A DNA stretch of 63,997 nucleotides, the filler included, from an uncultured Methanosarcinales archaeon (lineage in GTDB: Archaea > Nanobdellota > Nanobdellia > Woesearchaeales > CAZKBD01), in NCBI GenBank assembly GCA_964550945.1. It is 16 parts of 16 records of this genome, joined end to end, with 100 filler letters (N's around TTAATTAATTAA, not from the genome) between each part and the next. Parts side by side here need not be neighbours in the genome. Positions count along the whole stretch, not along the records: positions 4,823 to 9,470 come from CAZKBD010000119.1; 15 more parts are not named here. One strand, 5' to 3'. This document shows positions 6,001 to 9,000 of this stretch, piece by piece. Position numbers: made by a program. The number at the start of each line of letters is the position of its first letter. The first letter of the stretch is position 1.

Positions 6001-9000
6001 TAAACTCTATCAAAGCGATTATGATGCTAAAAGGCGAAGTGAAAATATAGGATGTGAGAAAAACCCCTATCCAGCATAGGAAAAACAGCCACGCTATGCC
6101 TTGTAATGTTGTGCTGGTATTGAATATCTGCGCAATCAAAAAAATGCTTGCTGTATACAGAAGCGCTCCTAGCACAATCAAGGCATTTCCTAATCCATGA
6201 TATTTTTTTAATTTTAAGAAATGGCTTGCAATATAAGCTCCGCAAGTAGCTGACAGCAGTATGATGATCTTGATTGTTGAATTCAACTGATGCCAGTTTT
6301 GCGCAACAAGCCAGATAACTCCTAACGCTATTAAGATAGAGCCAAAAACAGCTACAATTGTTCCAAATGAAGCGGCTTTTTTGTTTAACATGATATACGG
6401 CAAATATATTCATCTGTATTATAAAAAACTATCGGTAGATTTATGTCACGTTTCCAACTAACAAACCCAACAACAATGGCGAGGACGAGGCGGGGGTAGG
6501 CTCCTTCGGAGTGCCGAGTAGCGAAGCGTCCGAAGCCATTATTGTTGTTGGGTTTTGCTGCTAAGAAAACCGTTACCTTAGAAAGTGCACTCTACAATTA
6601 CCGATAGCTATTTAAACAATTGTAATTAACCAAAGCTAATGCCTCGCGGAAGAAAACCACAAAGCCCAATAAGGCAGAACATAATTGATATGCTATTCTT
6701 CTTAAAAGAAGCTTATGGATACGATCTCTATAGAAACTACATAACCATATTCCCTAAAGTAACCATGCGCTCTATCTACTATCATCTCAAGAAGGGCCTT
6801 GATTTAGGAGAGATAAAAATCAGCAGGATCCAGAAATCCCAGGGAGATTATAGCTGGGGCAGTGAAGCAGAAAAGATATATTATGGCTTAGGAGAAAATG
6901 CAAAGCCAACTGGAAATTTGCAGGTGAAGAAGGTATTAGATAAACCATAAGGCGATTTAAGACATGAAAAACCAATTTTGCAAGGCTCTATTGATTTAAT
7001 ATTTTGTTGATATTCTTAAAGAAGATTGATGCATTATCAAGAGACTCTTTTGCTGGGTCTCGATTTGCTTGTGGCAGTTTTTGGTAAGTAAATTCCCCTC
7101 TTTTGCTTTTTTCTTTGGTAAAAATGCCTAGCAGCTCATCAGCTTTTATCAATATTTTTTTATAAATTTTCAGCAATTCGACATCAATTTTTCCAGTTTT
7201 TACAAGATAAGCTTCAAAAGCCTCTATTGTTTTCTTGTGCACTTCTGGGGCTTCGGTTTTAATTCCTTCGTTAATTAATATTGCTTTTGCAGAATAGAAT
7301 ATGGAATAGTAAGAATGGCTAATTACTGTGCTATAAAAAGTAAACTCTTTTTCTAGTTTAAATTGTTCTTTCTGAAGAACAGGGTTGCTTGAAATATCAA
7401 AGAGCATTTGAGCTGCTACAAGCTCATTTTCTGCCCTTTGGATATATAATCTTGCTTCGTCATTCATATTGCCTGCCTTTGATAAGATGAATATACTCAA
7501 TAAAACCATAGTACACCAAGTTATTTTTATATATTTGTTTTCCTATATTTTCGAACTCAGATTTTAACATCTCTAAAAGCTCATATATGGTAAAGGCATG
7601 ATAATCTAGTTTCAATATCTCTCTCCTCTTGATAGTTTCTATGTAAGGCGCTATATCTTTTTTTGTTTGCTCTGAATCAACGATAATTGCCACATCCAAA
7701 TCAGATTTAGCCGTTGCTTTATTTTTAGCATAGCTGCCAAACACAATCAGAATAAAAAACTTGGTTTGCTTGAATATTCTTTTTTGAATTTCGCTAAGCA
7801 GTTCTTTAGGAATCTTTCTTTTTTTTAGTTCTAACTCATTTATCAGGTTGAGATAAGATATAGTCAAATTGTTGTCTAAATCTAGTTGGTAGGTTGTTAC
7901 ATCTCCCACATTCTTTGTTTTTACTATATCCTCATTTTGAAATTCCTTTAATGCAATCTGGACGATATTGTTTGATTTTTGTTTGCTTAATGTTTTAATC
8001 TGCTTGAAAGTTAAATTAGCAAACAAATCCTTTTTCAGTACAGAAAGTATGTTTAGTTGCTCTTTTGTTAACATTTTACCTATTTTTTGGTTATTCAATA
8101 CCTATTTTTTGGTAGATATATAAATGTTTCTGTTTTGAATGAATCAATTTGGTCTGAGCTCAATAAGAAATCTAATAATGTTCTGAATAATATTTTGGCT
8201 AACTGCCATTTAACTCACCTTTTTATCTTCCTCAAGAACCCAAGTAAAGCAAAAGCCTCTCTTCTTGTCAGGAACGCTTTTCCAATCATTCTTTTCCAGA
8301 TTGTTCTCTGAGTTTCCTTTTTCTCCTTTGTGGCAAACTCCAATCCATTCAGAACTTCATCTACTAACCTCAATATGATTTCTTTTTCCTTTTTAGAAGC
8401 AGGGATTATATGGCTGGTAGTTGTTTCTTTATTCAATCTTTTAAATATCTCATATAGAATTATTGACAATGAATGGCTTATGTTCAAAACAGGATATTCT
8501 TTTGGAGTTGGTATTGTAACAATAAAATCGCATTTTTGTATCTCCTTGTTTGTCAATCCAGAGCCTTCCCTTCCAAATAATAATCCAACTTTAGCTTTCT
8601 TAATCCCAGCCAGCTTATCAGCAAGCTGCTCAGGGCTTATAGGGCTTCTTGGGATGTTATAATCAGTTCCTAGGACAGAAGTGGTCCCAATCAAATAATC
8701 AAACCCATTTAAATAAGATTTCTTTTCTACTTTAATCTTCCTCAACAGATCATTAGCATGCTTTGCCCTATTCCTGGATTCCTGGCTTAGATAATCACAT
8801 TTAGGGTTTATCAAAATCAAGCTATCAAAGCCAAAATTCTTTGTAATCCTGGCTATAGCGCCAACATTCCCACTAATCGAAGGCTCCATTATTATAATTT
8901 CAATCATTTTTTGTTAATAACCTATATGTATTTAAAATGTTTACCACTGTTGCGCATTGTTAACTTAAGTGGGAAAAGTTTAAGCTGTTAAATTCGAGGC

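Follow-up and report, generated by a model that had tools for sequence, protein, structure and literature searches.

The REP, BIME and REPIN repeats, with their RAYT-class Y1 transposases, encompass bacterial palindromes that carry GTAG or CGTC tags (PMC3733652, PMC3116915 and PMC6006769, in the sections cited here). Such repeats and the enzymes that mobilise them are established for bacteria, and the cited section of PMC6006769 records the RAYT-type subclasses from Bacteria only. The element described below resembles REPs and REPINs in being a short, non-coding, intergenic palindrome that is found in multiple copies, occurs patchily and keeps its structure over its sequence. It reads G(U/C)AG before its second arm and CGUC after it, a possible counterpart of the unpaired tag that the cited sources place beside the variable hairpin of a REP. 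Both also form inverted doublets, and both are thought to be recognised as folded single-stranded DNA. In contrast to the REP, which is a simple hairpin of 20-40 bp found in hundreds of copies, the present unit is Y-shaped, 80-160 nt long and built of nested modules; its hosts are archaea, it reaches 1-33 copies, and it has no link to a Y1 or RAYT gene.

MITEs that are able to form a hairpin over their whole length include Correia/NEMIS, ERIC/IRU, RUP and bcr1; co-transcription of such MITEs is possible, and an RNA role has been considered for some. The present element is of comparable size, is likewise non-coding and intergenic, and has arms that can pair. Unlike these MITEs, it comes with no target-site duplication or parent IS that we could find, its core is conserved and its termini less so, and its fold is strand-asymmetric.

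Integron attC sites, the forked hairpin of CTX phage attP and the T-shaped terminal repeats of parvoviruses are folded single-stranded substrates. The likeness to the present element is that one strand folds into a bulged stem or a three-way junction, that structure is kept while sequence varies freely, and that a few specific bases would be read by an enzyme. These systems lie in cassette arrays or at genome ends and act with IntI, XerCD or Rep, whereas the copies described here are dispersed singles or head-to-head doublets. Their mixed orientation is unlike the one-way arrays at cassette ends expected of attC sites, a comparison in which no search was aimed at IntI. In the IS200/IS605 family and its deletion derivatives, whose transposition runs through a single-stranded intermediate, strand-specific hairpin recognition, the lack of target duplication and insertion into single-stranded DNA, as given in the cited section of PMC6006769, are features that the present element would share, and such insertion would explain landing in hairpin tips. 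That family differs in having two distinct subterminal hairpins, left and right, where here there is one closed Y-shaped palindrome, and in its Y1 transposase, which does not co-occur with our element. Finally, the mini-hairpin DNA GCGNAGC or GCGNNAGC is far more stable as DNA than as RNA and is found at single-stranded DNA origins (PMC13037366, in the section cited). It is a structural motif and not an element family, and supports folding at the DNA level without proving it.

Our search of the open literature turned up no account of comparable repeats from Woesearchaeota or any other DPANN archaeon. The element is a real and widespread repeat family of 80-160 bases in these tiny DPANN archaea, the Woesearchaeota, and it behaves more like selfish DNA nesting in hairpin tips than like an RNA gene. 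By its spread, its one-stranded fold, its doublets and nested modules and its lack of a tie to Y1 transposase, it points to a new route by which archaea of very small genome size move or copy folded DNA, and it accounts for many assembly breaks in their metagenome bins. For RNA discovery, the lesson is that textbook-like RNA covariation can arise from DNA hairpins.

Occurrence of the element

The window is the whole stretch of DNA that was analysed, 63,997 nucleotides in which parts of the genome under study (G000) are joined by filler; the features located in it are collected in Table 1. A blastn search and a covariance model built from nine copies gave nine full copies in this genome, all at E <= 8e-19: two on contig C119 and one each on C6, C99, C36, C3, C131, C24 and C44. 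A partial copy on C26 is a 3' remnant, and the start of C3 holds an additional 5' fragment. The genome-wide survey's note had counted at least 12 copies; the family is borne out, but the number comes down to about 10-11 distinct copies. The part copy at the end of C14 is the copy at the end of C44, the two being identical over 55 nt including flank (a contig overlap), and the one at the end of C34 is an overlap with the start of C131 and not a separate copy.

Table 1. Features of the element and its probable insertion site, in window coordinates
Feature	Position	Strand	Basis or remark
Left arm of outer 17-nt palindrome (CTATCGGT)	6429..6436	+	sequence and relative's contig
Copy a, whole Y-shaped hairpin	6463..6555	+	covariance-model match 6468-6549
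P1 5' arm (AAACCCAACAACAATGGC)	6463..6480	+	pairs with 6535-6555 in the minimum-energy fold
Tandem G.A and P1b	6481..6485	+	G6481.A6533, A6482.G6532; A6534 bulged
Arm 1	6486..6518	+	P2, G-run loop, P2b, apex
Junction U-A, arm 2 and junction G6528	6519..6528	+	P3 is GCGAAGC at 6521-6527
Right arm of outer palindrome (ACCGATAG)	6600..6607	+	sequence and relative's contig
Copy b	8993..9089	+	model match 9000-9081
C131 copy	46855..46998	-	model match 46861-46988
Weak divergent relative (C137:115-192)	60942..61019	+	26.7 bits, E 1.3e-3

Copy a corresponds to C119:1646-1727 plus an outer stem of AAACCC/GGGTTT. The flanks of copy b, TTCGAGG and GCCGAGAA, are conserved, recur at the C6 copy and the C26 remnant, and lengthen the stem by GGC/GCC and another tandem G.A; a scaffold gap of 10 N lies 43 nt downstream. 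In the C131 copy, which extends to the contig end, arm 1 is capped by a 48-nt hairpin module. The weak match on C137 consists of arm 1 and the junction without a P1 stem, in a G+C-rich stretch at the contig start; we rejected it, as its fold is no better than that of shuffles (z = +0.7) and Rfam returned nothing for it. Copies across genomes are 79-162 nt long as whole units with three helices, and the G+C content of the element is about 57%, against about 35% for the genome.

Among 151 genomes of the same order, the element is found in 34 at E <= 1e-3, a count that includes G000 and the unpublished G131. These 151 genomes span 143 genera, and the bearers, nearly all of different genera, are distributed patchily; the element is therefore not essential. 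A sample of the phylum gave it in 19 of 151 genomes, in agreement with the 19 other genomes first reported. Under laxer filters the copies number 33 in G004, 25 in G080, 22 in G119, 16 in G126, 14 in G075 and 10 in G147. Copies of 96-97 bits occur in both G000 and G147, which belong to different families. The description of the element as multiplying like a mobile element is upheld by this range of 0 to 33 copies per genome, by the patchy distribution and by contigs that break inside copies.

At nine loci Rfam gave just chance miRNA and sRNA matches (E 0.8-4.8), far below gathering scores, and at gathering scores Rfam 15 found one tRNA only in the whole window and no known self-cleaving ribozyme. 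The absence of a matching Rfam family, beyond such chance hairpins, thus stands, and with it the claim of a dispersed and uncatalogued family. Viral contigs were considered and rejected: 16 exact matches to a 17-nt core motif, where about 20 are expected by chance on our estimate, fall without exception in phage contigs of high G+C that lack the structure around the motif, and the model recovered none of the 16 at E <= 1e-3 and one weakly at E 0.006. The claim on distribution is limited to Woesearchaeota/Nanoarchaeota. By record title, 14 of 50 motif loci are from 'uncultured Methanosarcinales' and one of 50 from 'Thioploca sp.', titles that may not be right.

Fold and covariation

Copy a forms one long hairpin. 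Its + strand folds as RNA at -46.2 kcal/mol (z = -4.5), with none of 200 shuffles equally good, and its - strand at -41.4 kcal/mol. The P1 stem of this copy has a 3-nt bulge in its 3' arm, the other register having a C.A mismatch, and all 13 P1 pairs in the alignment are changed on both sides. Beyond the tandem G.A, the GGA of P1b pairs with UCC at 6529-6531, and columns 15-77 to 17-75 covary. At columns 13-79 and 14-78, G.A or A.G is found in 20-21 copies and a Watson-Crick pair in 70-72 of 94-99. What had been described as a GA/GAA internal loop is, where present, a tandem G.A with a 1-nt bulge, but most copies have two Watson-Crick pairs there.

In arm 1, P2 is formed between C6486-G6492 and U6512-G6518 and takes in the CGAG/CGAG tandem G.A. 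It is followed by a conserved G-run loop at 6493-6499 (GGGG in 79 of 102 copies), P2b at 6500-6504/6508-6512 and an apex UUC at 6505-6507. The CGAG strands are joined by tandem G.A/A.G in 64-65 of 92-97 copies and by Watson-Crick pairs in 25-31, about 30%, while the C18-G50 pair covaries with U-A in 12 copies. These are the CGAG and CGAGYAG strands that had been taken for invariant strands of a junction. The ribozyme-like junction largely dissolves because they pair with each other, and the roughly 30% with Watson-Crick pairs do not allow them to be called invariant. Arm-1 tips read CUNCGG, that is C(UNCG)G, in 42 of 82 cases, but in all 82 a triloop register gives better pairing than the UNCG one. 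Two further readings were rejected. An alternative pairing of the conserved 5' G-run with a C-run is covariant in one of four pairs, and such runs pair in any register; on our reading, the GA motifs depart from the K-turn consensus in the order of bulge and G.A pairs.

At the junction, the sequence read from G6518 through the U-A is GUAG, and the next bases are (C)GUC. Of 102 copies, 42 have GTAG as the tag before arm 2, 26 have GCAG and 12 ATAG, the first and last G of the tag being paired, and 61 have CCGTC after arm 2. Arm 2 alone varies from 7 to 56 nt and is the one part of the unit that would suit the size of a REP hairpin. Its loops are triloops in 60 of 99 copies and GNRA tetraloops in only 2 of 99, and GCGN(N)AGC is found at its tip in 36 of 102, the complement in none. 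That these triloop tips carry the mini-hairpin DNA motif on the folding strand supports a DNA reading. Runs of at least five T within copies are rare and symmetric with runs of A (6 against 8 of 102), and are uninformative on transcription.

An alignment of 102 matches has 87.5% of its cells paired and 30 of 33 pairs changed on both sides, with a covariation score of 0.403 against 0.135 when shuffled (0 of 500) and <= 0.07 when slid. A second set, gathered from GTDB genomes with a 22-nt motif, has 96.4% of cells paired and shows changes on both sides in 19 of 25 pairs; it scores 0.351 against 0.097. Having been fitted to the model, both alignments are biased in its favour. The view that pairing and not sequence is kept in every arm is upheld, covariation being strong in all helices in both alignments. 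Only one strand of the element folds well, G.T being found in 252 cells and A.C in 65, 45 of the latter at one conserved position; with fixed positions left out, the numbers are 62 and 12. The pair 24-44 is G.U in 70 copies and A-U in 19, a G.U-type pair at a fixed place. Across genera the core is conserved more than the ends. Such covariation is predicted equally by a folded DNA strand and by an RNA.

Genomic setting

All copies are intergenic, and their neighbours are unrelated housekeeping genes. The direction of the copies relative to these genes is random: 19 are tandem in sense and 22 in antisense, 28 stand between divergent and 13 between convergent genes. Inspection of the flanks by eye revealed no common promoter upstream of the copies, and the strand of the element has no link to GC skew in 3-kb flanks (43 positive, 55 negative, p = 0.27). 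An A-run and a T-run border many of the copies, as in GGCGTTTTT and GGATTTTTT. No RNA run was listed as containing window 4823-9131, which speaks neither for nor against expression. Most copies are single and not paired. All 13 pairs closer than 250 nt, in eight genomes, are head-to-head in the order (-,+), and in four of them a single 5' arm of 13-14 nt is shared, so that two promoters could not fit. Four (+) copies of G147 are preceded by what is left of a (-) partner, 16-18 nt long.

Within one genome the P1 arms, of 13-18 bp, are near-identical, so that terminal inverted repeats are present. No target-site duplication was found in the flanks of 10 copies from G147 and 21 from G004. Copy flanks tend towards inverted rather than direct repeats, and those beyond the model pair over at least 5 contiguous bp in 29 of 98 copies, compared with 3% of permuted flank pairs.

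Probable insertion site and module exchange

The 163 nt (6437-6599) that hold copy a with the shell around it are missing from a relative. In one X7 contig, 6436 is joined to 6600 through a single G, with 110 and 124 nt aligned on either side. The site in the relative reads CTATCGGT-G-ACCGATAG, a perfect palindrome, which places the insert at the exact palindrome centre. This presence/absence comparison is one case, resting on a single contig at 2.6x from a different organism (88-98% identity), and the missing 163 nt may be a loss in that lineage. Searches for orthologous empty sites through a flanking DUF2157 protein gave eight metagenome loci at 39-71% identity with no element at E <= 1; synteny there differs, and these loci are uninformative. 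An orthologous site was not recovered between G147 and G020, members of one family, as the flanking genes are on different contigs. A repeat found at the ends of C27, C66 and C93 shows a 12-nt identity (CGAGTAGCGAAG), which was dismissed, there being no further likeness.

A conserved 48-nt hairpin sits at the arm-1 apex in sense orientation in three copies of G000 and inverted in two copies of G070, and also caps five copies of an unrelated palindromic repeat of about 200 nt. G080 keeps the P1 stem unchanged around a different core; conversely, one core is found on many P1 stems. The inverted 48-nt module and the position of copy a at a palindrome centre make sense only at the DNA level.

Proposed mechanism and alternative explanations

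The family exists, its fold is conserved and strand-asymmetric, its modules are shuffled, and there is one presence/absence site. On balance the element is probably an archaeal REPIN-like, non-autonomous mobile repeat that is recognised as folded single-stranded DNA. One DNA strand, exposed as a single strand at a replication fork or when a cruciform extrudes, would fold into a long stem and two arms with tandem G.A pairs and very stable mini-hairpin tips. A putative enzyme would recognise the fold, together with the conserved GGGG...CCC...GGGGUG, GUAG and CCGUC, and copy or move the unit. New units and smaller hairpin modules would then land in the single-stranded tips or centres of existing palindromes. 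Such landing would explain the nested hairpins and fixed head-to-head doublets, as well as outer stems that differ between copies yet stay complementary. Both the single-stranded intermediate and the candidate enzyme are what we infer from these patterns.

The genome-wide survey's note had proposed a structured RNA. The element would then belong to a new structured non-coding RNA class that binds protein or cleaves itself; its gene would have been spread by a mobile process, and its fold would serve at the RNA level. Strong covariation in all helices, the far better fold of one strand, fixed G.U pairs, C(UNCG)G tips, retained unpaired bases (the G-run, the junction U-A and G) and a G+C-rich element in a G+C-poor genome are all in keeping with this, and the class would be new to Rfam. 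Structured RNAs also often contain tandem sheared G.A motifs. We nevertheless consider an RNA class unlikely: a conserved promoter is not seen by eye in the upstream flanks, gene-relative orientation is random, head-to-head pairs share a 5' arm, and a conserved module is inverted at the same apex. The fold itself argues the same way, in the preference of arm 1 for a triloop register, the DNA-type GNA triloops of arm 2, the mutual pairing of the supposed junction strands and the different core on the same outer stem in G080.

In a related proposal, the Y-shaped core would be a new structured RNA of DPANN archaea, such as a small self-cleaving ribozyme or a protein-binding RNA, that rides on nested palindromic DNA. 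RNA function would then account for the strand asymmetry, the fixed G.U pairs, the conserved loop with its G-run and the bases of the junction; we hold this proposal to be distinctly improbable.

There is little likelihood that the element is a cis-acting sequence that serves the host and is copied about, such as a bidirectional terminator or mRNA-end stabiliser, a barrier to supercoils or forks, or a signal for priming on a single strand. Roles of this kind have been ascribed to bacterial REPs (cited section of PMC3733652), mini-hairpin motifs are found at priming sites of single-stranded DNA phage (cited section of PMC13037366), and the intergenic position and the flanking A- and T-runs would fit. 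Yet the element turned up in no more than 34 of the 151 related genomes, one relative has the same site empty, divergent settings outnumber convergent ones with antisense about equal to sense, the reverse of what a terminator would give, and T-runs within copies are as rare as A-runs.

Through template switching in a quasipalindrome, a mutation in one arm can be carried over to its partner. A classical double-stranded MITE that owed its movement to a DDE transposase, its arms duplex-bound terminal inverted repeats and its pairing the unselected outcome of such correction, would suit the near-identical P1 arms within a genome and the exchangeable interior seen in G080, but is very improbable in view of the missing target-site duplications in G147 and G004, the lack of a longer same-ended element in G000, the excess of G.T over A.C, unexpected if duplex DNA matters, and a core better conserved across genera than the ends.

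Search for a mobilising enzyme

Y1 transposase genes (PF01797, IS200/RAYT-type) show no association with the element, being found in 14 of 34 genomes with it and 41 of 117 without it. None was found in the copy-rich G004, G075, G147, G008 and G095, of which G147 is 100% complete in 10 contigs and G004 has the most copies listed above. A Y1 transposase may be the mobiliser all the same, given the incompleteness of MAGs and past loss. In G000 the Y1 genes are on contigs C153 and C146, and the contig-end repeat mentioned above has no link to them. No autonomous relative sharing the ends of the element turned up, and none of the arm pairs in G000 has a gene between its arms. Of the 168 flanking ORFs, 150 were scanned and gave no transposase-family match; a Phage_integrase domain is present in two flanking ORFs (L047 and L055).

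Copies of the element in the genome

The genome under study, G000, is a metagenome-assembled genome of 1.97 Mb in 177 contigs, and the window, 63,997 bases long, is a string of its small contigs with runs of N between them. Two copies of the element, a Y-shaped hairpin repeat, lie on one of these. Copy a stands out by its high G+C content from surroundings of about 35% G+C; its + strand, folded as RNA, gives one long hairpin of -46.2 kcal/mol (z = -4.5), and its - strand reaches -41.4 kcal/mol. A covariance model, R1 (alignment A2), was made from nine copies of this genome and recovers all nine at E <= 8e-19, together with a single weak divergent match on contig C137. 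The copies listed in the genome-wide survey's note were recovered with blastn and motif scans. Among its part copies, the one at the end of C14 is the same copy as that at the end of C44, and the one at the end of C34 is the overlap with the start of C131; the part copy on C26 is a 3' remnant. A further 5' fragment lies at the start of C3. As the note had also stated, an Rfam search gives no match for the element, and the family is uncatalogued.

Positions of the features discussed (window coordinates unless a contig or locus is named)
Feature	Position	Description
Contig C119	4823-9470	
Copy a	6463-6555	on C119
Copy b	8993-9089	on C119
Left palindrome arm	6429-6436	CTATCGGT
Right palindrome arm	6600-6607	ACCGATAG
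Gene of small ORF	6639-6950	103 aa
Scaffold gap	9132-9141	10 N, 43 nt downstream of copy b
tRNA	11177-11262	86 nt, 45 bits
G+C-rich stretch, start of C137	60828-61140	~300 nt, several hairpins
Weak element-like match	60942-61019	within the C137 stretch
Common terminus of an unassembled repeat	C27:1-55, C66:1-56, C93:6770-6824	55 nt; in G000, outside the window
Second palindromic family of genome G070	L227, L229, L231, L234, L235	~200 nt, outer stems 14-25 bp, 48-nt hairpin module at apex

Anatomy of the fold

The outer stem, P1, is 13-18 bp long and has one sequence within a genome and full covariation across genomes: it reads CAACAACAAUGG in G000, G147 and others, and AUCCAGCCAUGG, CAGCAACAAUGG or CGCCGUCGUGGCG elsewhere. 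The two positions that follow P1 are Watson-Crick pairs in 70-72 copies and a tandem G.A/A.G in 20-21; a 1-nt bulge always comes next, and then the inner continuation of the stem, P1b. The CGAG and CGAG(YAG) strands, which had been described as invariant, in fact face each other and vary, being G.A/A.G in 64-65 copies and Watson-Crick in 25-31, while the C18-G50 pair becomes U-A in 12 copies. Since these strands pair with each other, P1b stacks on P2 at the junction, the rest of which is the 2-nt linker (U/C)A, then arm 2 (P3) and one G. Arm 1, on the P2 side, contains a conserved asymmetric loop opposite one U (GGGG in 79 of 102 copies), with a short stem and a tip of 3-5 nt beyond it. The length of arm 2 ranges from 7 to 56 nt, and most of its tips are triloops (60 of 99), the commonest being C(GAA)G (23). 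In alignment A4, nine copies have A in place of the G-run's first base, and in the same nine the C-run base becomes U and its partner A (model columns 25 and 34, which in copy a are 6493 and 6502); this co-change, seen at a single position, may reflect a base triple or a different hairpin.

Covariation and strandedness

Among 102 matches, 87.5% of cells are paired, both sides have changed in 30 of 33 pairs, and the covariation score is 0.403, compared with 0.135 for shuffled alignments (0 of 500) and at most 0.07 for slid ones. The motif-found set gives 96.4% of cells paired, both-side changes in 19 of 25 pairs and a score of 0.351 against 0.097; in each case the alignment had been fitted to the model. 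The family and the covariation that the survey had reported for it are real. The paired columns contain 252 G.T cells against 65 A.C cells, 45 of the latter at one conserved C.A position in P1; once the five positions at which G.T is the norm are set aside, the counts are 62 and 12. This asymmetry indicates that only the fold of the given strand matters, which excludes recognition as plain duplex DNA and fits RNA and single-stranded DNA alike.

The loops provide hints on this question, although they are not decisive. Arm 2 ends in GCGNAGC or GCGNNAGC in 36 of 102 copies, and in the complement in none. This is the 'mini-hairpin DNA' motif, whose stability a review describes as extraordinary in DNA and considerably lower in RNA, and which it places at promoters and priming sites that are used while single-stranded (PMC13037366). 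In 42 of 82 copies the tip of arm 1 is CUNCGG, which can be taken for a UNCG loop of RNA type, but in all 82 pairing is better in the triloop register than in the UNCG register, and C(UNC)G is the exact complement of C(GNA)G. In our reading of the alignments, every tandem G.A motif sits in a pyrimidine-GA-purine context, which is favourable for tandem G.A in DNA and RNA alike.

Distribution

R1 at E <= 1e-3 finds the element in 34 of 151 same-order genomes, with G000 and the unpublished G131 counted (33 of 150 without G131). The survey's count of 19 genomes was reproduced in a phylum-wide draw (19 of 151), every match falling in the same order. Laxer filters give 33 copies in G004, 25 in G080, 22 in G119, 16 in G126, 14 in G075 and 10 in G147. 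A search with a 22-nt core motif, using one genome per GTDB species, returned 50 loci, all 50 of which are true elements by the model. The titles of their records, as deposited, are Woesearchaeota, Nanoarchaeota or Nanoarchaeia (35), 'uncultured Methanosarcinales' (14) and 'Thioploca sp.' (1), and the named records agree with the presumed Woesearchaeota (DPANN) placement of G000. A 17-nt motif gave only chance matches in viral contigs.

Genomic setting and doublets

The survey had proposed a class of structured RNA, a reading with which the one-strand fold is compatible but which the setting of the copies leaves unsupported. Where simple ORF calls place a gene on both sides (82 copies; 20 of the 102 lack a neighbour on one side), orientation is mixed: 28 copies lie between divergent genes and 13 between convergent genes, while in spacers between tandem genes 19 are sense and 22 antisense. 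The flanking genes are unrelated housekeeping genes, including gyrB and those for ribosomal proteins, tRNA synthetases and ATP synthase, and no promoter-like box common to the upstream flanks was apparent by eye. All 13 pairs of copies less than 250 nt apart, found in 8 genomes, are head-to-head (-,+). In four of them the two copies share a single 5' arm of 13-14 bp, each using one of its strands, which leaves no place for the promoters of two RNA genes. Four (+) copies in G147 are preceded, immediately upstream, by a remnant of 16-18 nt that matches the 5' arm of a (-) partner exactly. An RNA is therefore unlikely.

Head-to-head doublets also recur as units (L045, L050, L086, L092, L100, L106, L150), and G075 has two types of doublet, with two near-identical examples of each at different places. 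Such recurring doublets resemble independent composite elements.

Events at the level of DNA

A near-identical 48-nt hairpin is found at the tip of arm 1 in three G000 copies (C3, C24, C131). Its 34-nt core occurs, among 151 genomes, only in G000 (3) and G070 (7). Of the seven in G070, two sit at the same arm 1 tip in the opposite orientation, and five form the apex of a different palindromic repeat. In G080 the chassis is swapped, the stem CAACAACAAUGGCGAG...CGAAGCCAUUAUUGUUGUUG enclosing a different arm 1, while copies in G147 and G004 carry further hairpins inserted at other places. A contig from run X5 has an arm 2 longer by CC on one side and GG on the other.

An empty site is provided by one contig (depth 2.6) of run X7, from a soil metagenome, which joins window position 6436 to 6600 with one G between and differs at 13 of 110 nt on the left and 3 of 124 nt on the right. 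The two palindrome arms are reverse complements, so the relative has an uninterrupted 17-nt palindrome, at the centre of which G000 has 163 extra bases: copy a and a surrounding shell that is partly self-complementary and unique in G000. The split palindrome lies about 30-40 nt upstream of the 103-aa ORF and might be an operator of its gene, in which case the insertion of copy a disrupted a regulatory site. Flanks beyond the model pair over at least 5 contiguous bp in 29 of 98 copies, compared with 3% of permuted flank pairs. This accounts for the long closing stems that the note saw differing from copy to copy, and part of the excess is simply longer P1 stems in some subfamilies.

Nature of the element

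Taken together, we somewhat favor a nested-palindrome mobile DNA repeat that is recognised in the form of a folded single strand. Among known elements the bacterial palindromic repeats REP, BIME and REPIN come closest; their features are reportedly also set out in PMC3116915. They are described as tagged hairpins in inverted doublets between genes, with a conserved structure that is presumably recognised in single-stranded DNA (PMC3733652). The element differs in size and shape, in host and in having no link to RAYT, and is therefore a variant of this kind rather than a member.

The Y1 (IS200/RAYT-type) transposase PF01797 is present in 55 of 151 genomes, namely 14 of 34 with the element and 41 of 117 without, and was not found in G004, G075, G147, G008 or G095. 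A comparative study of Y1 proteins lists only the IS200-type subclass for Archaea, the REP-associated subclasses being bacterial (PMC6006769). The flanking ORFs scanned (150 of 168) gave no transposase-family match, two of them having a Phage_integrase domain, and flank GC skew does not track the strand of the element. That the element serves its host in cis we regard as improbable. A classical MITE is very improbable indeed, as no target-site duplication was seen in the flanks of G147 and G004 copies and no autonomous relative, such as a parent IS, in G000. Searches of the open literature, with subscription journals outside their coverage, brought up no publication on repeats of this sort in Woesearchaeota or DPANN.

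Other features of the assembly

Even at E <= 10 Rfam returns nothing for the C137 stretch, whose examined part folds no better than shuffles. The scaffold gap near copy b suggests, as do the contigs that end within other copies, that the assembly is interrupted in the neighbourhood of these repeats. The terminus common to C27, C66 and C93 is followed by different unique DNA at each of the three contig ends; it contains a small GGGG/CCCC hairpin and a 12-mer, CGAGTAGCGAAG, that copies a and b also have. No link was found to the Y1 genes of contigs C153 and C146. The sole Rfam match of the window is a tRNA that is longer than usual and may contain an intron or a long variable arm.
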